A stretch of DNA of 64,000 nucleotides from positions 10,624-74,623 of the forward strand of contig JACQSK010000015.1 of the NCBI GenBank assembly GCA_016205975.1, written 5' to 3'. This DNA comes from Candidatus Uhrbacteria bacterium. GTDB lineage: Bacteria > Patescibacteriota > Patescibacteriia > UBA9934 > GWF2-40-263. Of this stretch, positions 3,225 to 60,776 are shown in pieces (the first letter of the stretch is position 1; every line of letters starts with the position of its first letter). The notes under the pieces are model-generated. The model was not told where the DNA came from. It did not search any database and saw only the letters and a list, made by a program, of their open reading frames with translations. The position numbers were made by a program, and so were the translations under genes.

Positions 3225-3500
3225 ATGTATCCTATTCCACGCACCTTTTCGACCAGGGACCTCCAGAGACAGTATCGTTCCATTATTGATTCAGCCAAGC
3301 AGACAAAAGAGGCCGTCGTGCTCATCAACAACAGCACACCCGAGGCGGTCTTGCTGGATGTAGAAACGTACAACCAGCTTGTCCAGGACGACTATGCGTG
3401 GGACGAATCTTTTGTTCTCAAACAAGTAGCGCAGGCAAACAAATCATCGCGCGGAGGCAAATCCAAAAAACTGACCTCCTGGGGCGATCTTGACGACTAA
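3225..3500 (+). CDS. Phd/YefM-family type II antitoxin
   Basis: N-terminal pattern RTFSTRDLQRQYRSIIDSAKQTKEAVVLINNSTPEAVLLDVETYNQL matches the Phd/YefM fold. Sits 4 nt upstream of a RelE-like toxin gene. Confidence 0.7.
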   Translation: MYPIPRTFSTRDLQRQYRSIIDSAKQTKEAVVLINNSTPEAVLLDVETYNQLVQDDYAWDESFVLKQVAQANKSSRGGKSKKLTSWGDLDD

Positions 3501-3503
3501 GCT

Positions 3504-3773
3504 ATGCCGGTCGTCATTCTATACACGCCGGAGTTTAAACGTGATTACAAAAAACTTTCAGGAGCGTTGCAAGAGTTGCTTAAGAAAAAAGGACGCGTTT
3601 TTGAGATCGAGCCATTTCATCCACTCCTGCGCACGCACAAACTTTCAGGGAAACTCCGTGACCTCTGGTCATTTTCTTTGGATTATCGCTGTCGCGTGAT
3701 TTTTCATTTTCGAGGTCAGGGTGAAGTTGAACTCCTGCGCGTTGGCGACCATTCGATTTATCGAAAGAAGTAG
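3504..3773 (+). CDS. RelE/YafQ-family mRNA-interferase toxin (paralog 1)
   Basis: HKLSGKLRDLWSFSLDYRCRVIFH...LLRVGDHSIY signature. Paralogous to the ORFs at 27645 and 31949. Confidence 0.75.
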   Translation: MPVVILYTPEFKRDYKKLSGALQELLKKKGRVFEIEPFHPLLRTHKLSGKLRDLWSFSLDYRCRVIFHFRGQGEVELLRVGDHSIYRKK

Positions 3774-7980: not shown

Positions 7981-8589
7981 ATGTCTGAGCAGCCACGCTC
8001 GTTTCAGGAATACCATACGAAGCGGTTTGCCGCGCCCGAGCTTCCATTGCCGGAGCGCCAACCGGTCCGCGAGGAGTCGGATGGAATGAAGGTCTTTCAG
8101 GCGCATCCTCCTGAGGCGTATATCGCGCATCTTGAGCGCGTGCAGGGAGAAGGGGCGGTTGAGGCCTTTCAACAAGTTCTCTCCGTGGCTCGTAGCATTC
8201 AAGGAGCCGGTGGGCGGGCGCTGCTTGTCGGTGGGTCTGTTCGCGACGAGGTGCTCGGGATGCCTTCAAAAGATTTCGACATCGAAGTCTACGGGATCGA
8301 GCCGTCCAAGCTTGAGTTGCTTTTGGCGCGATGTGGCCGCGTGGATTCTGTGGGCCGGGCGTTCGGGATCCTCAAGTTGGTTTCAACGGATGGGTTAGAT
8401 TTGGACTTCTCCATTCCCCGTCGTGATTCTAAAGTGGCGGAAGGTCATAAGGGTTTTGACGTGAACATGGATCCAGACATGAGTATCCTGGAAGCCGCCC
8501 GAAGGAGAGACTTAAGGGGTTCGTCATCGCCATCTCATGTACGCCGCGCTCTGCCACGATCTCGGCAAACCTCTCACGACGAAGTTTGA
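7981..8589 (+). CDS. cca: CCA tRNA nucleotidyltransferase, head (pol-beta nucleotidyltransferase) domain ORF
   Basis: GGSVRDEVLG...DFDIEV nucleotidyltransferase motif and RRD motif, preceded by a ~70-aa N-terminal extension. The ORF runs out of homology right after RRDL. Confidence 0.65.
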   Translation: MSEQPRSFQEYHTKRFAAPELPLPERQPVREESDGMKVFQAHPPEAYIAHLERVQGEGAVEAFQQVLSVARSIQGAGGRALLVGGSVRDEVLGMPSKDFDIEVYGIEPSKLELLLARCGRVDSVGRAFGILKLVSTDGLDLDFSIPRRDSKVAEGHKGFDVNMDPDMSILEAARRRDLRGSSSPSHVRRALPRSRQTSHDEV

Positions 8590-22931: not shown

Positions 22932-23048
22932 GCCTCAGGATAAGGCCAAGTCGAGGTCAGGGTAGCCAAAACCTCGAAAGACGTCAAGATCACCACTCAG
23001 TGTTATCCTCACTTCCATTCCACCATTCTTGACCTTTTTTGACTCTCC

Positions 23049-23077
23049 GTGATAATCTCCAGGCGCTTTTCTTTTCG
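23049..23077 (+). promoter_or_regulatory. Candidate sigma70-like promoter of the str operon (TTGACC-17-GATAAT)
   Basis: Hexamers and spacing seen directly, 35 nt upstream of the rpsL ATG. Confidence 0.35.
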
Positions 23078-23111: not shown

Positions 23112-23540
23112 ATGCCAACCGTAAACCAACTCATCCGAAAAGGACGACACCCTAAGTCGTACAAGAGTAAGTCGCCAGCGCTGCAATATACGCTCGACTC
23201 TTTGCATCGCAAGCGCACCCCGCTTGCCCATGGCAGCTCTTTCAAGCGCGGCGTGTGCGTGAAGGTGACGACCATGACGCCAAAGAAACCGAACTCCGCC
23301 ATCCGCAAAATCGCGCGCGTGCGCCTTTCCAACGGCACGGAAGTTAACGCGTACATTCCCGGTGAGGGACATAACCTCCAAGAGCACTCCATCGTGATGC
23401 TCCGCGGCGGGCGCGTGAAAGATTTGCCTGGCGTGCGCTATCACATCGTGCGCGGCGTGTTCGACACCCAAGGCGTGGACGGCCGCCGTCGCGGTCGGTC
23501 GAAGTATGGCATGAAGAAGCCGAAGGAGAAGAAAAAATAG
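23112..23540 (+). CDS. rpsL: 30S ribosomal protein S12
   Basis: [13 protein letters not shown]-terminus and PKKPNSA motif. The track ORF was trimmed to the conserved ATG. Confidence 0.95.
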
Positions 23541-23686
23541 CAGAGATCTCAGTAGCAAGTAGCTAGTAGTTGGAAGCAAGTATACTTGCTACACGCTACT
23601 AACTACCGACGACCTTATTTATTAACATCAACCGTCGGAGTACCTCACGCATGGGGGAAGCCAACCGATGAGATAACGTCAAAATT
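23541..23686 (+). promoter_or_regulatory. Nested palindromic structure in the rpsL-rpsG spacer; possible S7 autoregulatory target
   Basis: GTAGCAAGTA...TACTTGCTAC 10-bp inverted repeat, a 16-nt perfect palindrome AGCAAGTATACTTGCT, and a GTAGTT/AACTAC pair, all seen directly. The S7 role is by analogy with E. coli str mRNA feedback. Confidence 0.35.
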
Positions 23687-24157
23687 ATGCGAGGTAAGCA
23701 AGCGCCAAAGCGGGAGATCGATCCCGACCCGAAGTTCGGAAACATTCATGTCGCCAAATTGATTAACAGCATCATGCACGACGGAAAGAAATCCGTCGCG
23801 CGTTCGGTTGTCTACGACGCCTTTGATCTGATGGCCGAGAAGACGAAACTCGAACCGCTCGAGGTCTTCGAGCGCGCCATCAAGAACGTCATGCCCAGCT
23901 TGGAAGTGAAGAGCCGCCGCGTGGGCGGAGCCAACTACCAGGTGCCAATGTCCGTGCGCGGCGAGCGCCGGTATCTGTTGTCGTTCCGTTGGATCATCAC
24001 CGCCGCGCGTTCCAAGAAAGGCCGTGGGATGGCGGAACGCCTGTCCGATGAACTCGTCGCCGCTTCCAATAACGAAGGCGATGCGGTGAAAAAGAAACTC
24101 GACGTGCAGCGCATGGCAGAAGCCAACCGCGCGTTTGCTCATTTTGCTAAGCGCTAG
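23687..24157 (+). CDS. rpsG: 30S ribosomal protein S7
   Basis: Full-length S7 homology. Confidence 0.95.
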
Positions 24158-24160
24158 CCT

Positions 24161-26254
24161 ATGCCACGAGAATATCCGCTTGCCGCCACAAGGAACTTTG
24201 GAATCTTCGCGCATATCGACGCGGGGAAGACGACCGTGTCTGAGCGCATTCTTTTTTACACGGGAAAAAAGCACAAGATCGGCGAGGTACACGAAGGCGC
24301 CGCCACCATGGACTGGATGGAACAGGAGCGCGAGCGCGGCATCACCATCACCGCGGCGGCGACGACCTGCTTTTGGAAAGACCATCGCTTGAACCTGATC
24401 GATACGCCTGGGCACATTGACTTTACCGTTGAGGTGAAGCGCTCCATGCGCGTGCTGGATGGCGGCGTGGCTGTGTTCGACGGCGTCGCGGGCGTGGAAC
24501 CGCAGTCGGAAACCAACTGGCGCTACGCGGACGACTTCAAGGTCCCGCGCATTGCCTTTGTGAACAAGCTCGACCGCACGGGCGCAGATTTTTATAAGGA
24601 CCTCGACTCCATCCACCGCCGACTGACCAAAAATGCGCATCCGATCCAGCTTCCCATAGGCACAGAAGCAAACTTTGCCGGCGTGATTGACTTGCTGCAC
24701 ATGAAGGCGCACATCTACAAAGATGATTTGGGGAAAGACGTGGAGGTCGGGGAGATTCCCGCCGAGTACCTGGACCGCGCCAAGGAATATCGCGCCAAGC
24801 TCGTGGAGGCCGTTGCCGAGAACGACGAGGCGCTCATGAACAAGTATGTGGGTGGCGAGGAGATCAGCATTGAAGAGATGAAGCCGGTGATCCGCAAGGC
24901 AACCATTGCCAACACATTCGTGCCGGTCATGTGCGGTTCGGCTTTGAAGAACAAAGGCGTGCAGCTCTTGCTCGATGCCGTCGTGGACTATCTGCCCAAT
25001 CCGCTGGAGGTGCCTCCTGTGATCGGACATGATCCAGACGACATGGAGAAAGAACTCGTGCGCCATGCCTCTGACGAAGAGCCGTTTTCGGCGCTCGCCT
25101 TCAAGATCGCGGCAGACCCGTTCGTAGGTAAGCTCGCGTTCTTTCGCGTGTACTCCGGCATGGTCAAGGCGGGTTCGTATATTTTGAACTCCTCCACGGG
25201 AAACAAGGAACGCGTCGGCCGCATCGTGCGCCTGCACGCCAACACGCGCGAGGAAGTGGGAGAGGTCTATGCCGGGGAGATCGCCGCCATGGTGGGCTTG
25301 AAGGAAACCTTCACCGGTCACACGCTGTGCGATCCAGATCACCCAATCGTGCTGGAGGCGATCAGCTTTCCCGAGCCGGTTATTTCCATTGCGATTGAAC
25401 CCAAGACCAAAGCCGACCAGGAAAAGATGGCCATCGCCCTGCAGAAGTTGTCTGAGGAAGATCCGACGTTCCGCGTGCGGACGGATGAGGAGACCAACCA
25501 GGTCATCATCTCGGGCATGGGCGAGCTGCACTTGGATATTATCGTCGATCGCATGAAGCGCGAGTTTTCGGTCGAGTGCAACGTCGGCCAGCCGCAGGTC
25601 AGCTACCGTGAGACCGTGAAAGGAAGCGCGGAAGGGGAAGGCAAGTACATCCGTCAGACCGGCGGGCGAGGACAGTATGGCCACTGTTTGGTGCGTATTG
25701 AAAAGCTGCCGCCTGGTTCCGGCGTCCAGTTTGAAGAGGAGGTCAAGGGCGGCACGATTCCTCGCGAGTACTTCAACCCGATCGAGAAAGGCATTCGCGA
25801 GGCGGCTGATCGCGGGGTCATGGCCGGGTATCCTCTGCTGGATTTGAAAGTGACGCTCACCGACGGGTCCTACCACGAGGTTGACTCCTCAGAAGCGGCC
25901 TTCAAGATCGCCGGGTCCATGGCGTTCCAGGACGCGGCAAAGAAAGCCGGCGTGGATCTCTTGGAGCCGATGATGAAAGCGGAAGTGTCCACGCCAGAGG
26001 ACTTCATGGGATCGGTCGTGGGAGATTTGAATGCCAAGCGCGGACAGATTCAAGAGATGTCGGACCGCAGCGGCGCCAAGATCATCACCGCGTTCGTGCC
26101 ACTGGCTGAGATGTTCGGCTATGCGACGAGCTTGCGCTCGATGACGCAGGGCCGTGCCAGCTATTCGATGGAGTTTGATCATTACGATGTGGTGCCTGGG
26201 AACGTCGCGAAAGAGATCGTTGAGAAACGCGGAAGCGGACCCACGCGAGCGTAA
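24161..26254 (+). CDS. fusA: Elongation factor G
   Basis: [10 protein letters not shown]1 motif, DTPGHIDF motif, 697 aa. Confidence 0.95.
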
Positions 26255-26261
26255 AATACAA

Positions 26262-26285
26262 AACAGAGCTTCGGCTCTGTTTTTG
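26262..26285 (+). terminator. Intrinsic terminator immediately after fusA
   Basis: AACAGAGC-TTCG-GCTCTGTT hairpin followed by TTTT, starting 8 nt after the stop. Confidence 0.6.
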
Positions 26286-26308
26286 GTTGTGCTAAAATCT
26301 ACCCGTCT

Positions 26309-27340
26309 ATGAAAACTGTTCCGAAAAGCGTCCTTGGCGCCTACGCGATTGGGGCCGTCCAGTCGATCACGCAGGTGACGGCAGGGCTGGTCCACGAGAC
26401 GTTCGCGGTCAAGACCGATCAGGGACGCTACATCATCCAAAAACTCCATCCAGTGCTCGCGAGCAAAGCGATCGGAGAGGACTTCTTCGCCGTGACCGAG
26501 TTTTTGCGATCGCAGAAATTCTTGTCGCCTGTGTGCGTCCGCACAAAAAAGGGAGAGGTGCTTTCCGTGGACCAGACAGACGTCTGGCGGATGCAGACGC
26601 TGTTGCCTGGACGGACGATTCACGTAATCGAGAGTCTTATCATGGCTCGAGAGGCTGGGCAGATCTATGCCAGGTTCCACAAAGTCATGGACAAGATGGA
26701 CTATCGGTTTAAGTCAAAGAAGATTTTGCACGAGACGGAGAAGGTGTACGAGGCACTAGGGAAGGCGACAAAGGGGGCAGAGGGCGCAAAGGGAGCTGAG
26801 GTCGCACAGGAGGTTGCGTTCATCCGTCGGAATCTGCCGGAGTTTTTCCTACCTGCGGATCTCCCGCTGCGCGTCATCCATGGTGATCCAAAGATTTCCA
26901 ATATTTTGTTTGACCGCCACGGCAGGGCCAAGGCCATTATTGATCTTGATACCTGCAATCGTCGTCCGCTCCTTGTAGAACTTGGGGACGCGTTCCGTTC
27001 GTGGTGCGGTGGGCGAGAGGACGATCCGAGCAATACGTTCTCGCTTTCACGATTCCGCGCTGCGTGGAAGGGCTATGAGGCTGGCGCACAGGGATTTCTG
27101 ACCCGACGCGAGCGTCAGCTCGTGCCCCGCGCGATCGGTACGATTACGCTTGAGCTCGCTGCACGCTTCCTTACCGATTACTTTACCGACAACTACTTCG
27201 GTTGGGATGCCTCTCGTTATCCGTCTCGAGCTTCTCATAATCTCGCACGAGCCCGCGGCCAAATCGCAGAGTTTAAGGATTATCAAAAGAAGCTTCCGCA
27301 GATCAAGAAGATCGTGGAAGTACAGCCCACGGTAAGATGA
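26309..27340 (+). CDS. Phosphotransferase-family (APH/choline-kinase-like) small-molecule or protein kinase
   Basis: Brenner motif HGDPKISNILF and IDLDTCNRRP (DFG-equivalent) in a 343-aa protein. Confidence 0.7.
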   Translation: MKTVPKSVLGAYAIGAVQSITQVTAGLVHETFAVKTDQGRYIIQKLHPVLASKAIGEDFFAVTEFLRSQKFLSPVCVRTKKGEVLSVDQTDVWRMQTLLPGRTIHVIESLIMAREAGQIYARFHKVMDKMDYRFKSKKILHETEKVYEALGKATKGAEGAKGAEVAQEVAFIRRNLPEFFLPADLPLRVIHGDPKISNILFDRHGRAKAIIDLDTCNRRPLLVELGDAFRSWCGGREDDPSNTFSLSRFRAAWKGYEAGAQGFLTRRERQLVPRAIGTITLELAARFLTDYFTDNYFGWDASRYPSRASHNLARARGQIAEFKDYQKKLPQIKKIVEVQPTVR

Positions 27341-27362
27341 ATATCTACACGTGCGGTTAATG

Positions 27363-27391
27363 TTGACGGTAGGTGAAAGATATCGTATGAT
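27363..27391 (+). promoter_or_regulatory. Sigma70-like promoter (TTGACG-17-TATGAT) for TA module 2 and the downstream genes
   Basis: Hexamers and spacing seen directly. A palindromic ATGATAA...TTAATCAT candidate operator lies between -10 and the ATG. Confidence 0.4.
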
Positions 27392-27418
27392 AATTTCATA
27401 CTTAATCATCACTACCCT

Positions 27419-27640
27419 ATGTCCACCATCTCCGTGCCGCTTACAGGACCTCTCGAGCAGTTTATCGATGACATGATTCGTCGGGGGGCTGCGCCTAATA
27501 AAGCCGAAGTTGTCCGACAGGCGCTTGTTCGTTTTGCAGAGGATCAGGCGGTTGAGGCGGTTCTTCGTTCTGAACAAGAAGCGCGAGATGGAAAAGTTTT
27601 GCGCGGCGATTTACGTGACCTCATAAAACAGGTGACGTAG
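27419..27640 (+). CDS. Ribbon-helix-helix (ParD/CopG-like) type II antitoxin
   Basis: Small RHH-like protein sitting 4 nt upstream of a RelE-family toxin. Confidence 0.65.
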   Translation: MSTISVPLTGPLEQFIDDMIRRGAAPNKAEVVRQALVRFAEDQAVEAVLRSEQEARDGKVLRGDLRDLIKQVT

Positions 27641-27644
27641 ACTT

Positions 27645-27908
27645 ATGGACGTTTCCTACACGCCGTCCTTTATTCGCATGTTGAAATCGCTCCCAGACGT
27701 ACTGATTGATGAAGCGTTAGAGAAAATAGCATTGTTTCGAGATCCGACGAACCACAAACAACTGAAAGTTCACAAGCTCAGTGGTCGCTTGAAAGGTCGT
27801 TACAGTTTTTCCGTGAACTACAAAATTCGAATCGTTTTTAATTATCTCCCTACAGATCCTAAACAAGCACGACTCGACGCGATAGGTGATCATCGTGTTT
27901 ATGATTAG
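27645..27908 (+). CDS. RelE/YafQ-family toxin (paralog 2)
   Basis: HKLSGRLKGRYSFSVNYKIRIVF...AIGDHRVYD. Confidence 0.75.
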   Translation: MDVSYTPSFIRMLKSLPDVLIDEALEKIALFRDPTNHKQLKVHKLSGRLKGRYSFSVNYKIRIVFNYLPTDPKQARLDAIGDHRVYD

Positions 27909-27940
27909 GATGAGTCTCCAAACACAACTCTGCAAATGCG

Positions 27941-29749
27941 GTGCGATGTGATATGAGCATCTTCTCTCGCGGTACAGATCATCGTCTTTATCTATTCTGC
28001 ACTCTGTTGGTGCTGATTTTTTTGTTGGGCATAGTGATCGGTGGTTCAACGCAAGAAAAGGGAGCCTCTCAAACCGAGCTGGTAAGTGGTCCGGTTTTTT
28101 CGTATGGTTACGCCGCCGCGTCGTTTTATGAGAGAGCCAACGGGACGGCAGAGGCGATCGGGAGAACGAGAGCGCACTCGGCGATTGTGGCACATCATCT
28201 TCTCGTCGCAGACAAGATCGCGCAAGTGTTTGCTGCGCTGGGAGACGGGAAGGAGAAGACGGTCGTAATTCTTTCGCCGAATCATTTTTTTGCTGGACGT
28301 TCTGCCCTGCAGACGACGACAGGATCCTGGACAACGCCGTTTGGGGAGGTGGAGGTTGATCGTGAGAGTGTCGGCGCGCTCCTGGCGGCCGTGCCGGAGC
28401 TGTCCCTCGAGCCTGGGACGTTCAAAGAGGAACACGGCGTGGCTTCGCTCACGCCATTTGTGAAAACGTGGTTTCCCGAATCTAAGCTCGTGCCGCTTGT
28501 GATTCATGACAAGGCAACCGATGAAGAAGTCGCGGCGCTCGCTCGAGCGATTGAAGACGAACTTCCCGACGCTCTCGTGATTGCCTCGATCGACATGTCG
28601 CATTATCTTCCCGAGCACATTCAAGAGTATCACGATGCGGTGACGATGCGATCGATCGCGCAGGGCGCGGCGGACTTCGATCTCGAGATCGATGCCAATG
28701 ATGTGTTGCAGACACTGTTTGAAGTGAATCGTCTGCGCGGGGACCAGCAGTGGGTACAGACGCATCACGGAAGCTCGCTCGCGATGGAGGCAACGGACGA
28801 CTGGCGAGAGAATACCAGTCACATCCTTGGATATTTTATGGATGGCGAACCCGTGCCGGATCCGTTCGTGAGTTTGCAGTTTGTCGGCGACGTCATGCTC
28901 GATCGCGGCGTTCGTATCAAGATGGAAGAACACGGAGCGGCTTATCCATGGGAGAACGTCCAGCGTTTCCTGCAAGGATCGCATCTGCGCATTGCCAATC
29001 TTGAAGGGACGGTGAGTGAGAAGGAGATCCCCATGACCTACGAGTCGCCGTTCACCTTCACCTTTGCGCCGGAGTTCATAGAGGCGATGAAGCCGTTCAT
29101 CGACGCGGTGAGTCTTGCAAATAATCACTCAGACGACTTTGGCGCAGAAGGTGAACAGGAGACGCGGGATCGCCTCGCCATCGATCTCGGGATCGATTGG
29201 TTCGGAGGCTCCTCACGTTCTGATGATATTTACCGATACGACCTCTGTGACCAATCGGGGTGCTCTCTTGGGATCAGTCTGATCGGCTTCAATCAGTTCG
29301 GATTCCCGATTCCCGACCTGACCCCCATTATTGAGGCTGAGGATCAGGCTGGGCGGTTTGTCATCGTCGTGCCGCACTGGGGCGAGGAATATGTCACGGA
29401 GCCACAGGAGAGCCAGCGCGAGCTGGCGACGGCGATGATCGCGGCTGGCGCGGACTTCATCGTCGGCGCGCACCCCCACGTCGTCCAGGGGATCGAAGTC
29501 ATTGACAACGTCCCTGTCGTTTACTCGCTCGGGAACTTTGTCTTCGATCAAGGCTTTGATGAGACCGCGCGTGGCCTGACGCTTGGTGTGATTCTGGACG
29601 ATAGAAGTGCTACACTTTACCTGTCACCGATCTCGACCCTGGACGGACAGCCAACGCCCATGTCAGACGAGGAAGCCGCACAGCTGCTTCTTGATCGAAA
29701 CATTTCAGCAAACTCTCTAACCATTTTTTATGATGAACCTTCATCCTGA
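27941..29749 (+). CDS. Membrane-anchored fusion protein: MEMO1-family domain (res ~60-300) + CapA/PGA_cap metallophosphatase-like domain (res ~305-602)
   Basis: N-terminal signal-anchor TM helix. MEMO1 landmarks: AIVAHHLL, ILSPNHF, EEHGVASLTPF, PLVIHD, IASIDMSHY. CapA landmarks: FVGDVMLDRG, ANLEG, SLANNHSDDFG, VVPHWGEEY, GADFIVGAHPHVVQG, YSLGNFVFDQ. Confidence 0.8.
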   Translation: MRCDMSIFSRGTDHRLYLFCTLLVLIFLLGIVIGGSTQEKGASQTELVSGPVFSYGYAAASFYERANGTAEAIGRTRAHSAIVAHHLLVADKIAQVFAALGDGKEKTVVILSPNHFFAGRSALQTTTGSWTTPFGEVEVDRESVGALLAAVPELSLEPGTFKEEHGVASLTPFVKTWFPESKLVPLVIHDKATDEEVAALARAIEDELPDALVIASIDMSHYLPEHIQEYHDAVTMRSIAQGAADFDLEIDANDVLQTLFEVNRLRGDQQWVQTHHGSSLAMEATDDWRENTSHILGYFMDGEPVPDPFVSLQFVGDVMLDRGVRIKMEEHGAAYPWENVQRFLQGSHLRIANLEGTVSEKEIPMTYESPFTFTFAPEFIEAMKPFIDAVSLANNHSDDFGAEGEQETRDRLAIDLGIDWFGGSSRSDDIYRYDLCDQSGCSLGISLIGFNQFGFPIPDLTPIIEAEDQAGRFVIVVPHWGEEYVTEPQESQRELATAMIAAGADFIVGAHPHVVQGIEVIDNVPVVYSLGNFVFDQGFDETARGLTLGVILDDRSATLYLSPISTLDGQPTPMSDEEAAQLLLDRNISANSLTIFYDEPSS

Positions 29750-31622
29750 GGACAATGAGTCTCGATCTGTGCGACCATGGCTTCTCTATTTGATCGGCGG
29801 AGCTCTTATCGTCGTCGCGTTTGCGACGGGCGTTTTTTTCTCTGATGTGATGGAGAGGCGTGCTGGCGATGTGTACCCGATTGTCGACGAAGAAGCCCTC
29901 GAGGAGGAGGGAGCTCCAGGATTCACTCAGGACGAGGAAGGAGAACCCGTCAAGTACACCGCCACCGGGACGCTCACGATCGATTGGATCGCTCCTGACG
30001 AGCAGCCGAGTTATCCGGACGATGGCGTGTTCGATCGAGCGATGTGCTACGACGTGTACGATGGAGAGATGGGCAATAGCTGTGCCGAAGACCCCGACGG
30101 AGGGCCTCGTTGGTCCTACAAACTTGGAACCGTGGAGGGCGGCGCCTATGACGGACGAGATGTGGTCATGACAAGCGTGCCGATGTCCGGCATGGGAGTT
30201 TATTACGAGACGTTCTATCTTCTCTATGATCCTGCGAGAGAACAGGCGCCGGTGATTATTGATTCCCAGACACGAGGGGAAGGGTGGACTCTTGGCGACG
30301 GGAACGCGATCACCGCTACGGAGCTGATCGGCGAGACTCGTCTTGCAAAACTTTCAGGCTATGTGATCGACACCGAAGCGCTGATTCCCGAGCTTGCGAT
30401 CGACAGGGCGCTGGTGGAACCACCACCCGGGAACGAATTTGCTTTTGTCGGCTCTTGGAGGCGTTTGTATTCTGACGAGGCGATTTCGCTCACAGGGGCA
30501 ACCGCGTCGACGACGCTTTCAGATGGGAGGACTTTGTATCTCTGGGAGCCGAAAGTGGACGCCGATGGAATGATCCTGGAAGGTCAGACAGGGGTCGGTA
30601 AGAACTTGTTTTACCTGGTCGATGAAGATGGTCGGGTGCTGTTCTATGATCTCATCGTTCCGTTTTTTGCTAACGAGGTCGATCAGGAAGGATATACAAA
30701 CCAGGCCATAGGCATTCCCAACGTGGAGTGGAAAGATGGATCGACCAACGACGCAACGTATCTGAAAGGGGACGTGGGTGGATGCGGGTTCACGACCGTG
30801 ACGCATGTCATCTCTCCTGCGGTTGTCACGTCTCTCGATTTGCAGTATGCCGGCGTAGGTGTCATGCCAGGAAGGGGAACGGAATACCCCGTGTACGAGC
30901 CCGAGAGCTACGAGAACGCGTATTACGAAGACGCGTTCAACGCCGTGACCTTTGGGGGCGAGGGCACAGAGCCCAAGACGTACGACGATTACTCTCATCC
31001 CTATTTTTACTTCCAGGATTCTTTTGGCCGATGGATCGAGTTCATGAGCAACGAGCTGATCCCACCGGTGGAATGTGGCAAGCCGGTGGTCTATCTCTAT
31101 CCTGAGCAGGAAACGGACCTGGAGGTCTTCGTGCATCCGCGCGGCGGGTTCTCCTCTACCGAGCCTGAGTACGGCGATGGGTGGGACGTGACGGCCTATC
31201 CCGACGGCCACCTTGTGAACCGAGCGGACGGCATCGGCTATCCGTACCTGTTCTGGGAAGGTCGTGGTGGACTGTATGCGCCGCCGAGTTCGTATTGGGT
31301 CATGGCTCGGTCGGATGTTGAATCATTCTTGAGAGCCACGCTCACAAAAATGAATCTGAGCGGAAACGAAACGGACGACTTCATCGAGTTCTGGCTGCCG
31401 CGCATGCAAGAGGCGTCGTACTACAAGATCGGTTTCCACGACACGCGGGTGATGGATGCACTTGCTCCACTCAGCTTCTCGGTCGCACCTGATCACGTCT
31501 TCCGCATCCTGATGGATTACTCCGAGCTTCAAACTCCCGAGCCGTCCAAGCCACCGGCACGTCTGCCTCGCGCCAACCGCGAAGGGTTCGATGTGCTTGA
31601 ATGGGGCGGCGTGCTTCGCTAG
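29730..31622 (+). CDS. Hypothetical exported/membrane-anchored protein (630 aa) translationally coupled to the MEMO1-CapA gene
   Basis: N-terminal TM anchor and an acidic, aromatic-rich extracytoplasmic body. 20-nt overlap with the upstream gene. No family recognised. Confidence 0.6.
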   Translation: MMNLHPEDNESRSVRPWLLYLIGGALIVVAFATGVFFSDVMERRAGDVYPIVDEEALEEEGAPGFTQDEEGEPVKYTATGTLTIDWIAPDEQPSYPDDGVFDRAMCYDVYDGEMGNSCAEDPDGGPRWSYKLGTVEGGAYDGRDVVMTSVPMSGMGVYYETFYLLYDPAREQAPVIIDSQTRGEGWTLGDGNAITATELIGETRLAKLSGYVIDTEALIPELAIDRALVEPPPGNEFAFVGSWRRLYSDEAISLTGATASTTLSDGRTLYLWEPKVDADGMILEGQTGVGKNLFYLVDEDGRVLFYDLIVPFFANEVDQEGYTNQAIGIPNVEWKDGSTNDATYLKGDVGGCGFTTVTHVISPAVVTSLDLQYAGVGVMPGRGTEYPVYEPESYENAYYEDAFNAVTFGGEGTEPKTYDDYSHPYFYFQDSFGRWIEFMSNELIPPVECGKPVVYLYPEQETDLEVFVHPRGGFSSTEPEYGDGWDVTAYPDGHLVNRADGIGYPYLFWEGRGGLYAPPSSYWVMARSDVESFLRATLTKMNLSGNETDDFIEFWLPRMQEASYYKIGFHDTRVMDALAPLSFSVAPDHVFRILMDYSELQTPEPSKPPARLPRANREGFDVLEWGGVLR

Positions 31623-31626
31623 ACAA

Positions 31627-31668
31627 ACAAAAAACACTCGGGTCAATGACTCGGGTGTTTTTTATGGA
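31627..31668 (+). terminator. Intrinsic terminator, which is also copy 1 of a 30-nt direct repeat: AAAAAACACTCGGGTCAATGACTCGGGTGTTTTTT
   Basis: 13-bp stem (with G.U pairs) plus U-run, 5 nt after the stop of the 630-aa gene. Near-identical copy at 32317-32355. Confidence 0.6.
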
Positions 31669-31725
31669 GCATTTGACCACTCGTCTTGAGGATGATAGAG
31701 TAACAAAAATTGTTACAGTTTATCT

Positions 31726-31944
31726 ATGCGCAACATCGTCAACATTTCCCTACCAGGCAGTCTTACAAAAGAAGTCGAACGTGGAGTCAAAGAATTCCAT
31801 TTTGCTTCCAAGAGTGAATTTTTTCGGCATCTGGTCCGAGAGTGGCTCACAGGACACTTGGTTTTGGACTTGGCTCAGAGTCGTCGTGAGTACGCCCAGG
31901 GGAAAGCCAAAGTTTTGTCGAACGTAAAAGATCTTTGGAAGTAG
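31726..31944 (+). CDS. Ribbon-helix-helix (CopG-like) antitoxin
   Basis: Small RHH protein sitting 4 nt upstream of a RelE paralog. Confidence 0.65.
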   Translation: MRNIVNISLPGSLTKEVERGVKEFHFASKSEFFRHLVREWLTGHLVLDLAQSRREYAQGKAKVLSNVKDLWK

Positions 31945-31948
31945 TGTT

Positions 31949-32209
31949 ATGGCGGAAGTTCTCTACACGCCGCATTTCAAGCGTGACGCAAAACGCTTGC
32001 CGGTTTCTCTGCGCAAACTTATTGAGGATCGGCTCAAGCGTTTCAAAACAGATCCGTTCGATCCCTTACTCAAGACTCACAAGTTAGACGGGAAGCTGCG
32101 CGGACACTGGTCGTTTTCCATCGACCACAAGATTCGTGCGATCTTTAGCATCGAGGACAAATCAGTGTTTGTCCTTCATGCGATCGGTGATCATTCCATC
32201 TACGATTAG
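31949..32209 (+). CDS. RelE/YafQ-family toxin (paralog 3)
   Basis: HKLDGKLRGHWSFSIDHKIRAIF...AIGDHSIYD. Confidence 0.75.
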   Translation: MAEVLYTPHFKRDAKRLPVSLRKLIEDRLKRFKTDPFDPLLKTHKLDGKLRGHWSFSIDHKIRAIFSIEDKSVFVLHAIGDHSIYD

Positions 32210-32316
32210 GAACAAATAACCTATGCCTCCAGAAGACAGAGCTTCCTTCTGTCCATCCTGTGGCTATCCTGCTCATGCTGGTCACGCGCCGAAATGCTCG
32301 GTTGTTGCAGGAAAGA

Positions 32317-32355
32317 AAAAACACTCGGGTCATAGACTCGGGTGCTTTTATATCT
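32317..32355 (+). repeat. Copy 2 of the 30-nt repeat/terminator hairpin (AAAAAACACTCGGGTCATAGACTCGGGTGCTTTTAT)
   Basis: 27 of 30 core positions match copy 1. Together the two copies bracket TA module 3. Confidence 0.6.
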
Positions 32356-32599
32356 GGGGTGGAAGTGCTGTTTCTGGCTTGCCGTGTGACTTATTCCAGT
32401 TCATCTACCTCTTTTCCTGTGCGGTCAATTCCCAGATGATTTCCGTCGAAGGACAAGCCAGGACGGGGTTCTTGCCCACCGAGACCTCAGTGGTATTGGC
32501 GAGACACGATACTGCACAAGAGGACAGGCTACCAGAAGGTCAGGTTTCTGTCAAACGATCGTGGGCTTTTCCCTGTAAAAGCAGCTGATTACTCATTTC

Positions 32600-32627
32600 T
32601 TGACACAGCCCTCTCATCGGCTAAAAT
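32600..32627 (+). promoter_or_regulatory. Sigma70-like promoter (TTGACA-16-TAAAAT) for the 137-aa ORF
   Basis: Consensus hexamers. The ATG lies 10 nt after the -10. Confidence 0.45.
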
Positions 32628-32636
32628 GCGCTCACT

Positions 32637-33050
32637 ATGAGCAACCACTTACAGCGTATCCTCGACCTCGTCCGCCGAACGGGAAACACCATGGTTGTCG
32701 TTGAAAAGGATCAAGATCAGGGATTTGTCGTCATGGACTTGGATCAGTATGAGGTTCTCCTAGATTCTCAGATCATTTCACCCACTCGTCCAGAATCCTC
32801 GACTCCCAACATCTGGGACGTGATGCCGGAGGCTAAGGAACAAGGGGAAACATGGGATCCAGACAGTCTATCCGAGGCAGAGATGGCCGAGTTGGAGAAG
32901 CAATACGAGCAGTTTGCCAAGAGAAACGTGAAGGTGGCGATACAAGAGACACAGACTGGGCCAACACCGGTTGAGCCTCCAAAGCCGCCAGAAACCAAAA
33001 AAGACGAGGACTTTGGCGAAGAAGAGTTCTATCTTGAACCTGTGGACTAA
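32637..33050 (+). CDS. Hypothetical protein with a Phd/YefM-like N-terminus and an acidic C-terminal tail (orphan antitoxin-like)
   Basis: QRILDLVRRTGNTMVVVEKDQDQGFVVMDLDQYEVLL resembles the Phd/YefM fold. No toxin partner is adjacent. Confidence 0.45.
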   Translation: MSNHLQRILDLVRRTGNTMVVVEKDQDQGFVVMDLDQYEVLLDSQIISPTRPESSTPNIWDVMPEAKEQGETWDPDSLSEAEMAELEKQYEQFAKRNVKVAIQETQTGPTPVEPPKPPETKKDEDFGEEEFYLEPVD

Positions 33051-33067
33051 GAGGGGAACCCAGAGAC

Positions 33068-33096
33068 TTGCGCGATTTCAGGCCCTTTGTTATACT
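33068..33096 (+). promoter_or_regulatory. Candidate independent promoter for tuf (TTGCGC-17-TATACT)
   Basis: Hexamers seen 80 nt upstream of the tuf ATG. Confidence 0.4.
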
Positions 33097-33176
33097 TTCG
33101 CACGTCTTCAAAAAAGGAGGCACGGATCAAAAATCATAAATAATTTTGGGTAAAAATTGCCCTTACTTTCAATCGT

Positions 33177-34370
33177 ATGGCTGAAGTCTTTCAGCGCACT
33201 AAGCCGCACGTGAACGTCGGTACCATTGGTCACGTTGACCATGGCAAGACCACGACCACGGCCGCCCTGCTCGCCGTTTTGAACGCGAAGGGCATGACTG
33301 CCCAGAAAAAGGGCGTGGATGATTTGGATAAGGCTCCTGAGTCCAAGGCGCGTGGAATCACGATCGCCACGGCTCACTGTGAGTATGAGTCCGACAAGCG
33401 TCATTATGCGCACGTCGACTGCCCAGGTCACGCCGACTACATTAAGAACATGATCACCGGTGCCGCCCAGATGGACGGAGCCATTTTGGTCGTGTCGGCC
33501 GCTGATGGTCCCATGCCTCAGACTCGTGAGCACATTCTGCTCGCTCGTCAGGTTGGCGTTCCAGCCGTTGTCGTGTTTTTGAACAAAGTCGATCAAGTGG
33601 ATGACCCAGAGCTGATTGATTTGGTTGAGGAAGAAGTCCGCGACCTGTTGAAGAAGTATGAGTTCCCAGGCGATGAAGTGCCCGTGATCCGTGGCTCAGC
33701 GCTCAAGGCGCTTGAGAACCCGACAGACGATGCGGCGACCAAGTGCATCATGGATCTCGTGAACGCCTTGGACACCTACATCCCAGAGCCCGTGCGTCAG
33801 ACCGACAAACCCTTCTTGATGCCAATCGAAGACGTGTTTTCGATCGAGGGTCGAGGAACCGTGGTGACAGGTCGCATCGAGCGCGGCATGGTCAAGATCA
33901 ACGAGGAGCTCCAGATCGTCGGTATGCGTCCAGAGGCCATGAAGACGGTCGTGACCGGTATTGAAATGTTCAACAAGCAGCTTTCTGAAGGGCGCGCTGG
34001 CGACAACGCAGGTTTGCTCTTGCGCGGAACGAAGAAAGAGGAAGTCGAGCGCGGCATGGTTTTGGCCGCTCCTGGTTCCATCACCCCTCACACCGAGTTT
34101 GAGGCCGAGACGTATGCACTCACCAAAGAGGAAGGCGGCCGCCATAAGCCATTCTTCAAAGGCTACAAGCCACAGTTTTACATTCGCACCACGGACGTGA
34201 CGGGCGAGGTGACACTGCCTGAGGGAACAGAGATGGTCATGCCGGGCGATACCGTGAACCTGACCATCAAGCTCATCCAGCCTGTGGCTCTTGAAGAGAA
34301 GATGTCTTTCGCGATCCGCGAAGGAGGTCACACGGTTGGCGCTGGTGTGGTAACAAAGATTATCAATTAA
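33177..34370 (+). CDS. tuf: Elongation factor Tu
   Basis: [21 protein letters not shown] motifs; 397 aa. Confidence 0.96.
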
Positions 34371-34377
34371 CCCATGA

Positions 34378-34420
34378 GGAGCTCCGGCGCGTTGCGTCGG
34401 GGCTCCTTATTCGTTCTTTT
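34378..34420 (+). terminator. Intrinsic terminator after tuf
   Basis: 13-bp GGAGCTCCGGCGC/GCGTCGGGGCTCC stem (two G.U pairs) followed by a T-rich tract. Confidence 0.55.
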
Positions 34421-34762
34421 TTGAAGCTTGTGACTGATCAGAACAAACAACCAGACGAGAAAGCGCGCATCCGCATCAAGATTCGTGCCTACGATCACAA
34501 GGTCATCGACTCCGCTACTCAGACCATCATGAAGACGGCTGAGCGGTCAGGGGCGGTGGTGATCGGCCCGGTTCCTCTTCCCACCGAGAAGCGGAAGTAC
34601 ACCGTGAACCGTTCCACGTTCGTCCATAAGGACTCACGGGACCAGTATGAGATGCGCGTCCACAAGCGCATCATCGACATCACGGATCCTACCGAGAAGA
34701 CGATCGACTCACTCATGAGTCTCAATCTTCCGGCAGGAGTAGACGTTGAGATTAAAACCTAG
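34421..34762 (+). CDS. rpsJ: 30S ribosomal protein S10
   Basis: [11 protein letters not shown] core. Non-ATG start (TTG 34421 or GTG 34430). Confidence 0.9.
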
Positions 34763-52355: not shown

Positions 52356-52667
52356 ATGGAAATCCGTTTCTTTCATACAGAGATCGAACAGTTTATCGCC
52401 ACACTCGAAAAGTCAACGATTGCAAAAGTCTTGCGGACGTTCGATTTGTTGGAGACGTTTGGATACCGACTCGGCATGCCTCATTCTAAAAAGATTGACA
52501 CGAGTCTTTTTGAGTTGCGGATTCGTGGTGTCCAAGAGGTTCGATTTTTGTATACGTTTCGAAAAGGAGAGATCGTGATCGTCTTGCATGGTTTTGTGAA
52601 AAAATCTCAAAAACTTGCACTGAAGGAGAGAAAGCTCGCACAACAGAGGAAAATTTCGTTGACCTAG
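52356..52667 (+). CDS. HigB/Gp49-like (RelE/ParE superfamily) toxin
   Basis: LFELRIRGVQEVRFLYTFRKGEIVIVLHGFVKKSQK signature. Confidence 0.7.
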   Translation: MEIRFFHTEIEQFIATLEKSTIAKVLRTFDLLETFGYRLGMPHSKKIDTSLFELRIRGVQEVRFLYTFRKGEIVIVLHGFVKKSQKLALKERKLAQQRKISLT

Positions 52668-52695
52668 TATAACAGATGTGTTATATTTTTTTTGT

Positions 52696-52968
52696 ATGAA
52701 ATCTTACCGCGTCCTCAGAGAGAGCTTTTTGGCTGATAGGGAAGTACGAAAAGCCTACGACGAACTTGGTCCGGAGTTTGTCATTATTGAGAAACTTATC
52801 CAAAGACGATTGCACAGAGGCGTGACACAAGGACAGCTGGCTGAGATGATCGGAACAAAGCAGGCGGCCATTTCTCGTTTCGAGTCTGGAAAATATAATC
52901 CCACGGTTGGTTTTCTGTATAAGGTTGCCGATGCTCTTGATGTCAAATTGAAAGTGACCATTTCCTAG
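52696..52968 (+). CDS. HTH XRE-family antitoxin (HigA-like)
   Basis: LAEMIGTKQAAISRFESG helix-turn-helix, immediately downstream of the toxin gene. Confidence 0.7.
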   Translation: MKSYRVLRESFLADREVRKAYDELGPEFVIIEKLIQRRLHRGVTQGQLAEMIGTKQAAISRFESGKYNPTVGFLYKVADALDVKLKVTIS

Positions 52969-59352: not shown

Positions 59353-59493
59353 ATAGGCAAAGACACAAAAAGAAAAGGGCTCCTTAGGTAGTTAACCGTT
59401 CGGATCCCTTTTCGTATTGATAAAACAATCTATCACAACAAAGCGTTTTCGTCTTGTTTTTCGAAAGACGTTCTTGTAAGATATCTCTGTGAT

Positions 59494-59661
59494 ATGCCAA
59501 TGAATCATCAAACTTCATCGTACGTTGTTCTCCCCCGTCAGCAGGATTCGCTCCGAGCTCCTTTTGTGAGTTTGCAAACGCTTCGCCGTGCGGTTTCAAA
59601 AGCTTGGAAAGGTGTCTCAGCGACTCAAGAGATTCGTCGACAGCGCAAACGCAGTACATAG
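59494..59661 (+). CDS. Small ORF (55 aa) immediately upstream of the PIN toxin; putative VapB-like antitoxin
   Basis: Positional only: stop TAG lies 5 nt before the vapC ATG. Basic C-terminus. Below the track's ORF length cutoff. Confidence 0.35.
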   Translation: MPMNHQTSSYVVLPRQQDSLRAPFVSLQTLRRAVSKAWKGVSATQEIRRQRKRST

Positions 59662-59666
59662 GTGAT

Positions 59667-60086: not shown

Positions 60087-60124
60087 CTCCTTTAACTTGA
60101 GATGGAATCAAGAGTATCTTTTTT

Positions 60125-60715: not shown

Positions 60716-60728
60716 ATGAAGTGAAGTT

Positions 60729-60776
60729 TTGTGACTACATCATATCCGCGAAACGATTCCGTTTCTGAGATTGGTA
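60729..60776 (+). repeat. attR-like direct repeat = degenerate second copy of the asnS 3' end (would encode ..RETIPFLRLVNRI..)
   Basis: Aligned base by base to 59298-59345. Confidence 0.65.

Follow-up and report, generated by a model that had tools for sequence, protein, structure and literature searches.

In the window analysed here, a stretch of 64,000 nucleotides from an ultra-small bacterium of the Candidatus Uhrbacteria type (Patescibacteria, CPR), the fusA and tuf genes of the str operon are separated by 6,922 bp. Comparison with related loci indicates that this gap is very probably an ancestral split, in which an insulated junction between fusA and a p137-tuf pair was filled stepwise, with two toxin-antitoxin (TA) cassettes, TA1 and TA2, as its newest layer. 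The str/S10/spc super-operon serves as the textbook case of conserved gene order and is in wide use as a phylogenetic marker string. A large group of Patescibacteria appears to have stably rewired the middle of its str part: fusA is followed by a terminator, a new gene precedes tuf, and the promoters are separate. After its insulation, the junction would have gathered genes for envelope and salvage functions over a long period and, more recently, TA cassettes at terminator junctions.

Layout and integrity of the divided str operon

The genes rpsL (about 23112-23540), rpsG (23687-24157), fusA (24161-26254) and tuf (33177-34370) were identified with Pfam and NCBIfam, all on the plus strand and in the order of a str operon; rpsJ (34421-34762), recognized in the same way, comes after tuf and its hairpin. 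A candidate str promoter (23029-23056, plus strand; TTGACC-16-GATAAT, 10 of 12 matches) lies upstream of rpsL, and the promoter-proximal part rpsL-rpsG-fusA (23112-26254) has an identical order in all related loci. Adjacency of fusA and tuf, taken as a gap of at most a few hundred nucleotides, is lost, the interval extending from 26255 to 33176. Among 49 species-representative loci with both genes, the median gap is about 112 nt, and 36 loci have a gap of 426 nt or less. The other 13 have larger gaps (457-5072 nt), and all of them appear to be of Patescibacteria type, as judged from record titles, EF-Tu identity and the presence of p137 rather than by formal classification.

The source is evidently a metagenome-assembled genome and composition is uneven along the interval, which could point to a chimeric contig placing unrelated DNA between the two genes. 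Against this, 11 Logan assemblies, made independently and from different sequencing runs, agree with the window at 99.9-100% identity. One contig (L112) spans 24502-33464, from fusA to tuf, in one piece, and this contig, L113 and L114 each reach from fusA to p137 or tuf. Since these assemblies reproduce the region, one of them across the whole interval, the interval is no chimera; related species have the same gene order, and the probability of an assembly artefact is negligible. The preliminary description had reported the string as physically split by about 6.9 kb and had asked for a chimeric contig to be excluded. The split is real, and every gene named there as lying between fusA and tuf was found. 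For annotators of CPR genomes, a wide fusA-tuf gap is not to be equated with misassembly.

Operon splitting is an already known kind of event. The window shares the gene order of the canonical rpsL-rpsG-fusA-tufA operon. Unlike in that operon, fusA ends in a terminator, 6.9 kb with about ten further elements come before tuf, a minus-strand RNA gene is present (and a minus-strand methyltransferase in relatives), and tuf is stably preceded by a new gene, p137. In Gammaproteobacteria, multigene insertions have been found between concatenated translation operons, e.g., bfd-bfr-hopD between str and S10 in Salmonella (PMC6735719). As in those cases, non-mobile genes sit amid conserved translation units without mobility genes, and the separation appears to begin small and then grow. 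Whereas those insertions lie between operons, the one described here lies inside an operon that is single elsewhere and is both ancient and conserved in a CPR clade.

Transcription signals and the conserved neighbour of tuf

The fusA gene is followed by a bidirectional intrinsic terminator (26260-26285; AAAACAGAGC-TTCG-GCTCTGTTTTT), and a hairpin with a T-run 3' of fusA, differing in stem sequence, is present in 14 of 14 related loci examined. The predicted tuf promoter region (33065-33106, plus strand) comprises a -35 box TTGCGC (33068-33073) and an extended -10 TGtTATACT (33088-33096); this candidate promoter (33068-33096) is kept in 13 lineages as AGACTTGCg...TGtTAtACT...CgCaCGTCT. An imperfect inverted repeat around it (GACTTGCG, 33065-33072, and CGCACGTC, 33099-33106, plus strand), likewise conserved in 13 lineages, may serve as an operator. 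The tuf leader of about 75 nt carries a small hairpin (GGGTAAAAATTGCCC, 33148-33162, plus strand) 15 nt before the ATG, which recurs with altered stem sequences in at least seven relatives, and a 17-bp terminator-like hairpin follows tuf (34374-34410, plus strand). Extra tuf-specific promoters within the str operon have been reported for Bacillus stearothermophilus and Streptomyces ramocissimus (cited in PMC6800327). As there, tuf in the window would have its own promoter besides transcription from upstream.

These signals uphold the earlier claims that fusA has an intrinsic terminator and tuf a candidate promoter and a terminator of its own. The fusA terminator, two further terminators, units on the opposite strand and the conserved tuf promoter argue, at the level of sequence signals, against a single four-gene transcript. 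The string is thus probably also divided into separate transcription units, as had been proposed from the fusA terminator and the dedicated tuf promoter, and the precise starts and stops given for the locus are predictions of the same kind. In this arrangement, fusA would stop at its own terminator, p137 would be expressed from a leaderless promoter, and tuf from a second, dedicated extended -10 promoter. Two intervening units had been credited with consensus sigma70 promoters and near-leaderless starts. Promoters close to consensus do occur at 32600-32627 (p137, 11 of 12 matches) and 27363-27391 (TA1, 10 of 12); the near-leaderless start holds for p137, 9 nt from its promoter, but not for the TA1 antitoxin gene AT1, with 27 nt between promoter and ATG.

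The p137 unit (32600-33050, plus strand) consists of this promoter, TTGACA-16-TAAAAT, and an ORF (32637-33050) for 137 amino acids; the effectively leaderless promoter is backed by footprinting across relatives. The preliminary description called the gene a Phd-like orphan. It is no orphan: its family has at least 577 Patescibacteria proteins, with homologues named Uhrbacteria or Patescibacteria, and in each of the 21 loci extending as far as tuf it is the gene immediately before tuf. None of the 21 has an insertion between p137 and tuf, and every insertion falls between fusA and p137. The minimal form, fusA-(0 or 1 ORF)-p137-tuf, was found in the more distant loci L002, L003, L008, L119 and L121. 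Two other Patescibacteria loci (L011 and L012) have a short fusA-tuf gap and no p137, so the fusA-p137-tuf arrangement is not universal in Patescibacteria. Across a broad group of Patescibacteria, p137 and tuf form a conserved pair, and the str string there would read rpsL-rpsG-fusA / p137-tuf instead of rpsL-rpsG-fusA-tuf. The pairing appears to be undescribed so far, and annotators may take a "hypothetical" or "antitoxin" gene before tuf as a member of a conserved family.

At its N-terminus the protein carries a Phd/YefM-like domain, followed by an acidic linker and, at the C-terminus, the motif GEEEFYLEPVD. About 45 N-terminal residues match the profile of Phd/YefM type II antitoxins (PF02604); for the window protein this match is weak (E 0.002; 18.3 bits against a curated cut-off of 29.8; profile positions 10-50 of 74), and among 47 p137 relatives the domain is found at E 0.01 or better in 32 (best 3.5e-7). 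An AF2 model has a moderate pLDDT of 67, and its top fold matches are YefM/RelJ antitoxins, at non-significant scores; no sequence match was found in the PDB. Unlike Phd/YefM antitoxins, p137 has no cognate toxin gene beside it, the downstream gene being tuf in all 21 loci and the upstream neighbour variable, and it carries the long acidic linker, a predicted helix at residues 80-106 and the FYLEPV motif.

A role in translation might be the reason why the conserved genes of the interval adjoin tuf. On this view p137 could, for example, regulate tuf as a domesticated antitoxin-like protein or bind EF-Tu, the sRNA candidate described below could tune p137-tuf, and a translation factor could be the substrate of the kinase. 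The constant p137-tuf neighbourhood, distant lineages included, the DNA-binding type of domain in two thirds of the relatives, the conserved inverted repeat at the tuf promoter and the presence of the sRNA always within the interval are consistent with such a module, and Doc, the partner of Phd, phosphorylates EF-Tu. The explanation is nevertheless rather unlikely: the kinase is a full-length homologue of sugar kinases and not of protein kinases, Memo-CapA and p630 are predicted to be exported envelope-type proteins, and the p137 model is moderate with non-significant structural matches. Roles in binding and expression are predictions, and linkage can last without functional coupling. A tentative and improbable proposal goes further: a module specific to the group, made up of p137, the divergent sRNA and the tuf promoter together with the inverted repeat around it, would set the supply of EF-Tu independently of EF-G and ribosomal proteins. 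The domesticated Phd/YefM-type p137 would then act as a tuf transcription factor or, through its conserved acidic FYLEPV tail, as a direct partner of EF-Tu, and its fixation before tuf would have broken the str operon, leaving the junction open to the genes that accrued later. Should EF-Tu indeed be controlled by p137 or the sRNA, this would offer a testable handle on growth-rate control in organisms not yet grown alone.

The inherited backbone and the sRNA candidate

Relatives whose EF-G is 81-93% identical to that of the window have the order fusA, NahK-like kinase, (Memo-CapA, p630), p137, tuf. This backbone order is kept in L001, L082-L099 and L105, and the closest genome locus, from Ca. 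Uhrbacteria, has an EF-G identity of 85%. Identities of the kinase (50-81%), Memo-CapA (57-75%) and p630 (46-72%) drop in step with those of EF-G and EF-Tu. The GC3 of the three genes (0.63-0.65) is near the host value (0.70 +/- 0.08). Pfam and NCBIfam searches found no integrase or transposase in the interval, which also has no tRNA. With these genes in place at the same site in relatives, and host-like in codon use, the backbone is ancestral.

The first of these genes encodes a NahK-like sugar kinase of the APH fold (unit 26290-27340, ATG at 26309, ORF 26309-27340, plus strand; PF01636, E 1e-22), with an extended -10 TGcTAAAAT (26290-26298, plus strand) 10 nt before the ATG, and it occupies the same position in 15 or more related lineages. 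Like N-acetylhexosamine 1-kinase (NahK; PDB 4ocu and 4wh1), with which it aligns over its full length (residues 15-336, E 1e-30), it keeps the catalytic motifs HGDxKxxN and DLD (here HGDPKISN and IDLD), which suggests membership of the NahK family. The earlier label "APH-like kinase" was correct for the family, within which NahK is the more exact match. Differences from NahK are a similarity that is only moderate by eye, a context unrelated to the GNB/LNB pathway and a substrate that is only predicted; all biochemical functions of genes in the interval are predictions.

Downstream lies a fusion of Memo (AmmeMemoRadiSam-B-like) and CapA/PGA_cap domains (27953-29749, plus strand; PF01875, PF09587, TIGR04336), with a predicted membrane anchor at the N-terminus. 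It is present at the same position in L082, L083, L085, L086, L087, L089, L099 and L105. The next gene, p630 (29730-31622, plus strand), overlaps its stop by 20 nt and is always downstream of it in relatives. The 630-aa product has a hydrophobic N-terminal stretch, predicted to span the membrane, and no match in Pfam or NCBIfam searches.

On the minus strand, a candidate structured sRNA of about 200-205 nt (32312-32520) begins with the conserved CUCUUGUGCA and has a 3' domain of nested helices b, d and c plus a terminator. Its predicted promoter (32526-32554, minus strand) has a -35 TTGACA, a 17-nt spacer and an extended -10 TGgTAGCCT, and is found in 12 of 12 lineages as TTGAC[AG]-N17-TGnTAnnnT. 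A model of it (R1) detects the 12 lineages at 93-125 bits, the next best match scoring 34 bits. Paired cells make up 86.4% in the pairing analysis and 25-42% in slid controls; both sides vary in 20 of the 28 pairs, which supports covariation, and none of 500 shuffles reached the pairing result. Rfam gave no match at gathering thresholds over the window and none relevant at E up to 1 over 26200-34500, and the candidate appears to be undescribed so far. For annotators of CPR genomes, this means that a candidate structured RNA with a strong predicted promoter sits unannotated in the fusA-tuf interval. An ORF at 32223-32588 (p121) was rejected as a gene: it overlies a terminator repeat and conserved sequence of non-coding type, and the closest relative does not have it intact.

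Of 13 relatives checked, 12 have a minus-strand methyltransferase gene between fusA and the kinase. L105 has it too; the gene is absent from this place in the window. We infer the order of gains and losses from neighbour-joining trees of single proteins, in which the kinase tree is not fully congruent with that of EF-Tu. The relatives compared are metagenome contigs of unknown completeness. A Uhrbacteria-type ancestor would have held the minus-strand membrane methyltransferase, the NahK-like kinase and the minus-strand structured sRNA in the junction. The methyltransferase was probably lost later in the lineage of the window, and a sub-clade would then have gained the exported Memo-CapA and p630 pair. 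This pair is missing from L088, L090 and L091, which nest among carriers, a pattern that requires either multiple gains or repeated loss. The backbone would have been passed on vertically as a string of separate transcription units, and the fusA/p137 junction would tolerate extra genes owing to the mutual insulation of fusA and p137-tuf, allowing it to be filled stepwise over a long time.

TA cassettes at two terminator junctions

Two sites of the backbone, slot A between the kinase and Memo-CapA and slot B between p630 and the sRNA terminator, have received unrelated cassettes in different lineages. In the window, slot A holds TA1 (27363-27908, plus strand), with a promoter (27363-27391), a ParD-like antitoxin (AT1, 27419-27640; TIGR02606, E 2e-7, under the cut-off) and a RelE-like toxin (Tox1, 27645-27908), 41% identical to Tox2. 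Slot B holds TA2 (31673-32209, plus strand), with a promoter (31673-31701), an operator-like palindrome at it (GTAACAAAAATTGTTAC, 31700-31716), an RHH antitoxin (AT2, 31726-31944; RHH_1, E 0.0014, under the cut-off) and a YoeB/YafQ-like toxin (Tox2, 31949-32209; PF06769, 28.3 bits against a cut-off of 27). As adjacent small genes with family-level matches and the RHH/ParD-type antitoxin first, both resemble type II TA systems of the RelE/ParE superfamily, TA2 also in its palindrome and in Tox2 passing the Pfam YoeB threshold. The cassettes themselves are ordinary; they differ from the usual systems in their siting at terminator junctions and in the terminator duplicated around TA2.

Neither cassette was detected in relatives, in which slot A is empty or occupied by other genes. 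The GC3 values of TA1 are 0.47 and 0.43; that of AT2 is 0.51, and all TA genes fall at 0.43-0.61 against the host 0.70 +/- 0.08. TA2 lies between two terminator hairpins (31625-31662 and 32312-32349, the second being also the 3' end of the minus-strand sRNA), which form a direct repeat (D1) of 38 nt with 89% identity and a spacing of 687, giving a 687-bp unit. In L105, L089 and L099 the terminator is a single copy and TA2 is absent. L086 has another RHH-RelE pair at the TA2 site, and in both L086 and L087 two terminator copies enclose a cassette at this junction or close to it. Flanking repeats, absence from the nearest relative and atypical composition together mark TA2 as a recent insertion.

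The atypical cassettes, the variable slots among close relatives, the repeat around TA2 and low-GC patches at 27-28 kb and 32-33 kb might suggest that the whole 6.9 kb was newly and horizontally inserted into an intact fusA-tuf junction acting as an integration hotspot, as the preliminary description had supposed. This is very unlikely. The kinase, Memo-CapA, p630 and p137 keep their position down to 81% EF-G identity, and thus are not absent at the site in close relatives; the backbone genes co-diverge with EF-G and have host-like codon use, mobility genes and tRNAs are lacking, and the p137-tuf linkage extends over a broad group of Patescibacteria. The synteny comparison named in that description therefore refutes a recent insertion of the backbone. 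Its hotspot claim survives for slots A and B, and for TA1 and TA2, and fails for the four backbone genes. Within the interval, only TA1 and TA2 look like recent insertions, and it is solely for them that the recent-island reading is valid. In the stepwise history preferred here, these two paralogous RelE-superfamily cassettes at terminator-bearing junctions, TA2 with the shared terminator present in duplicate around it, would be the newest layer and the only accessory one. Two of about five TA cassettes of the 64 kb fall in the interval, a mild enrichment only.

Gene content and integrity of the fusA-tuf interval

The str string rpsL-rpsG-fusA-tuf is physically split in the window, as the preliminary description had reported. 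According to ORF listing and Pfam/NCBIfam scans, 6,922 bp separate fusA (24161-26254), which follows rpsL and rpsG, from tuf (33177-34370), which is followed by rpsJ. The genes that had been listed between them were all recovered. An APH-fold kinase (26309-27340) is followed by TA1 (27419-27908), a toxin-antitoxin (TA) cassette with a ParD-like antitoxin and a RelE-like toxin (Tox1), and by a Memo and PGA_cap fusion gene, Memo-CapA (27953-29749). Next come p630 (29730-31622), encoding a 630-aa protein that matches no domain and has a hydrophobic, predicted membrane-spanning stretch at its N-terminus, TA2 (31726-32209), with an RHH antitoxin and a YoeB/YafQ-like toxin (Tox2), and p137 (32637-33050), with a weak Phd/YefM match. 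The fusA terminator, the promoter and terminator of tuf, and the consensus promoters before TA1 and p137 were also found. One further ORF, p121 (32223-32588), was rejected as a gene: it has no family match, its frame is not open in the related contig L105, its mismatches show no clear 3-nt periodicity, and it is left uncalled by gene callers in independent contigs. Pfam/NCBIfam scans found no integrase or transposase in the interval, and searches for tRNAs and for Rfam families, as possible integration targets or known RNAs, gave no match there.

A chimeric contig has been ruled out as the source of this arrangement. Exact-protein look-ups gave no match with the EF-G of the window; smaller proteins did match, revealing 11 contigs from independent assemblies of different sequencing runs that are 99.9-100% identical to the window. 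One of them, L112, spans 24502-33464 as a single contig, from fusA through tuf. Groundwater sequencing runs of the SRR12113xxx and SRR43434xx series contain this organism.

A full-length alignment links the kinase to N-acetylhexosamine 1-kinase (PDB 4ocu, 4wh1; E 1e-30), whose catalytic motifs it keeps, and it is most likely an amino-sugar salvage kinase. We rejected the idea that it pairs with p137 as kinase-toxin and antitoxin: it is homologous to NahK, and p137 is widespread in loci that lack it. The genes for Memo-CapA and p630 overlap by 20 nt, and both products have a membrane anchor at the N-terminus; from these sequence features we infer a putative envelope-associated pair. A comparison of p630 and five orthologues with Pfam, at E up to 1, returned no credible match.

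A probably old split and its recent layer

Among 49 representative loci having both genes, the fusA-tuf gap is at most 426 nt in 36 (median about 112). It reaches 457-5072 nt in the other 13, all apparently Patescibacteria-type, a call based on record titles, EF-Tu identity and the presence of p137 and not on formal classification. As wide gaps are apparently confined to such loci, the split can be regarded as a lineage trait. The gap of the window is the largest among the loci examined. A MAG of Candidatus Uhrbacteria has the closest species-representative locus, with 85% identity in EF-G and 93% in EF-Tu. In some other phyla, tuf is absent from the 10 kb downstream of fusA, e.g., in Helicobacter and Campylobacter loci, and tuf-specific promoters are already known (PMC6800327); the split by itself therefore has precedents. 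Split operons, and genes inserted between translation operons, have likewise been described (PMC6735719).

The interval had been described as an accessory insertion hotspot, with the whole block as a recent insertion. Synteny, divergence and codon use bear on this reading. The relatives comprised 23 loci from a metagenome scan with the kinase, onto which the window proteins were mapped, and L105, which was added by exact-protein look-up. Nine of them (L082, L083, L085, L086, L087, L089, L096, L099, and L105), scored in full or up to the contig end, share the order fusA, kinase, slot A, Memo-CapA, p630, slot B, p137, tuf, where slot A is the kinase/Memo-CapA junction and slot B the junction between p630 and the terminator of a candidate sRNA. 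EF-G in these loci is 82-93% identical to that of the window. A shorter order, fusA, kinase, p137, tuf, is found in L001, L088, L090-L095, L098, and L101. Identity to the window is 50-81% for the kinase, 57-75% for Memo-CapA, and 46-72% for p630, and declines alongside that of EF-G and EF-Tu. The three genes have a GC3 of 0.63-0.65, near that of the host (0.70 +/- 0.08). The same genes thus occur in the same order and position in relatives, an outcome that the preliminary description had itself set as refuting a recent insertion of the block.

The hotspot idea holds for the two slots and the TA cassettes. TA1 and TA2 have a GC3 of 0.43-0.61, and neither was detected in any relative when the window proteins were mapped onto the related loci. 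The window matches L105 on either side of TA2. L105 has one copy of a 38-nt segment that forms the p630 terminator, and a single terminator is likewise found in L089 and L099. The window has two copies (31625-31662 and 32312-32349), which are 89% identical, lie 687 bp apart, and flank TA2. At the site of TA2, L086 carries an unrelated RHH-RelE pair between terminator copies at 7265-7294 and 7852-7885, and slot B of L087 holds a 543-aa gene between copies at 6578-6610 and 8235-8264. L086, L087, L089, and L099 have an empty slot A of about 130 nt. The slot is occupied by an AbiEii TA together with RibD_C and DHH genes in two relatives, L082 and L105; L083 to L085 carry other genes there, and the window carries TA1. 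These varied fillings indicate that the two terminator-bearing junctions act as insertion-tolerant slots, which is the surviving part of the hotspot idea. Three lineages have a slot B cassette enclosed by two copies of one terminator hairpin, and its genes differ from lineage to lineage. No remnant of ribH, the slot B occupant in sister lineages, was found in the window.

Gene loss or movement has also shaped the interval. In 12 of 13 relatives examined, and in L105, fusA and the kinase are separated by a minus-strand gene for a membrane SAM-methyltransferase of about 180 aa with a DLGSGDGR motif (e.g., L082 2840-3472 and L001 12094-12671). The corresponding spacing in the window (26255-26308) is only 54 nt, and no copy or homologue was found anywhere in the 64 kb; the lineage of the window has therefore lost this gene from the interval or moved it elsewhere.

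The history that we consider highly probable is that the str operon of a Patescibacteria group was re-partitioned in ancient times and then inherited vertically. The re-partitioning would have left fusA with its own terminator and p137-tuf with their own promoters. Extra genes would then have accreted stepwise at the insulated junction between the two units, the TA cassettes being the only recent layer.

Further TA-like units occur in the window. A third RelE-like toxin paralog (3504-3773), 35-50% identical to Tox1 and Tox2, forms a unit with a Phd-like antitoxin (3225-3773). A possible HigB/HigA-like pair (52356-52968) and a possible PIN-domain gene (59604-60086) were recognized by eye only. 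With these two, the 64 kb hold about five TA loci, so such cassettes appear to be common in this genome. A low-GC patch at 59000-62000 (42-47% vs. 57% overall) includes a 364-aa ORF (60813-61907) with a GC3 of 0.44 vs. 0.70 for the host and, by eye, a D-alanine-D-alanine ligase-like N-terminus; this region may have been horizontally acquired.

In other CPR lineages (L005 12204-13343, L013 2726-5519, L018 2229-7085, L045 12751-16735), the gap between fusA and p137/tuf is filled by different, mostly large genes. By eye, their products resemble type IV pilins, with FTLIELL at the N-terminus, or large repeat proteins that appear to be secreted, which suggests, as far as typing by eye allows, that the junction repeatedly collects envelope genes in CPR lineages. 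Four species-representative MAGs (L003, L005, L009, and L017) are titled 'uncultured Gammaproteobacteria' and carry a p137-family gene at the expected position. Their EF-Tu is 78-80% identical to that of the window, except in L009, which is not assessable because its contig stops before tuf. The taxonomic labels of these four MAGs look wrong.

The p137 family and the predicted promoters of p137 and tuf

The product of p137 had been called a Phd-like orphan. It is in fact a member of a family of at least 577 proteins, retrieved by a profile search of 5.8 billion proteins, and its gene is the conserved core of the locus. Uhrbacteria and Falkowbacteria have homologues directly upstream of tuf, according to BLAST and a small HMM, as do several CPR loci that are unnamed or mislabelled. 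Wherever a family match has a named source, it is Patescibacteria, Uhrbacteria, or Parcubacteria; precomputed PF02604 matches exist for many members. Six further members, including distant ones at 16-20% identity, each lie directly before tuf-rpsJ. In 21 distinct loci no gene separates p137 from tuf, all extra genes being located between fusA and p137; the minimal arrangement, rpsL-rpsG-fusA-p137-tuf, is seen in L121. Literature searches on the p137-tuf pairing found nothing, and it appears to be undescribed.

The N-terminus of p137 is a helix-strand-strand-helix domain of about 45 residues with the motif L..IL.LVRKTGDT.IV.D...D.FVVM.L..YE. It is followed by a variable acidic linker, a confidently predicted helix (80-106), and, in most members, a C-terminal GEEQFYLEPVE motif. 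A Phd/YefM match at E 0.01 or better was obtained for 32 of 47 members. The structure model, based on an alignment of database proteins, has a mean pLDDT of 67; its top Foldseek matches are YefM/RelJ antitoxins, suggestive only, as the best E of 0.24 is not significant. Matches with PDB sequences were at chance level only. The predicted fold appears Phd/YefM-like, and the genomic context indicates that p137 is not a TA antitoxin. Public gene callers start p137 at an internal Met (32691 vs. 32637), giving 117-119 aa and removing the most conserved N-terminal motif. Family conservation and the apparently leaderless promoter support the 137-aa start.

This promoter, TTGACA, 16 to 17 nt, TAAAAT/TACAAT, is followed by exactly 9 nt to the ATG in nine lineages, which implies a leaderless mRNA. 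The near-leaderless starts of the preliminary description are confirmed for p137 and extend to the kinase, whose ATG comes 10 nt after an extended -10 sequence (TGaTAAGAT, then 9 nt, in relatives); TA1 has a leader of about 20 nt and does not conform. Downstream of fusA, a hairpin with a T-run was present in 14 of 14 relatives examined, with unrelated stem sequences.

The tuf promoter, AGACTTGCg...T.TGtTAtACT.t.CgCaCGTCT, is conserved in 13 lineages, and its -10 lies 78-82 nt before the ATG in nine of them. It is bracketed by an imperfect inverted repeat, GACTTGCG / CGCACGTC (33065-33106), conserved in the same number of lineages. Because the -35 is kept far more strictly than a weak -35 beside an extended -10 requires, this repeat could be an operator. 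The tuf leader has a hairpin, GGGnn...nnCCC (33148-33162), about 15 nt before an ATG without a Shine-Dalgarno sequence; the stems are changed in relatives. Leaders of more distant CPR loci (L003, L005, L008, L013) carry a different conserved block, CGGCTGGTTnCC.

A candidate structured RNA on the minus strand

From the second terminator copy to the p137 promoter, a stretch of 250 nt, identity to L105 is 83%, vs. 73% for neighbouring coding DNA, and no frame stays open in both sequences. A candidate structured sRNA of about 150-250 nt is located here on the minus strand (32312-32554, including its promoter), with counterparts in L105 (9582-9864), L001 (13686-13886), L089 (14652-14881), and eight more loci. 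In all 12 lineages a promoter, TTGAC[AG], 17 nt, TGnTAnnnT, is followed by an invariant 5' CUCUUGUGCA and a hairpin region that varies; the 3' domain beyond it is conserved, and the bidirectional terminator after that is shared.

Single-sequence folds gave identical nested helices, and helix b formed in 12 of 12 lineages with differing sequences in duplex predictions. The 5' CUCUUGUGC may pair with GCACAAGAG as a candidate pseudoknot, alternative to helix b. Scores under the covariance model R1 were 93-125 bits for the 12 instances and did not exceed 34 bits for any other sequence. MAFFT alignments put the 3' arm of helix b out of register, and pairs were counted after realignment to the covariance model; as this alignment is fitted to the structure, the counts lean towards the model. 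With that bias, 86.4% of the cells form pairs, vs. 25-42% with slid partners; both sides change in 20 of 28 pairs, helix b covaries in 9 of 9 pairs, and none of 500 shuffles reached these values.

SRP RNA and 6S RNA were considered for a loose likeness in sequence and shape. Neither is supported: Rfam scans gave no match, and the architecture, a 5' hairpin domain, a nested 3' domain, and a terminator, is unlike both. Literature searches on the sRNA found nothing, and it appears to be undescribed; together with the p137-tuf pairing, it is what makes the locus merit follow-up. In each of the 12 lineages the sRNA lies between fusA and tuf and is convergent with the kinase or p630.
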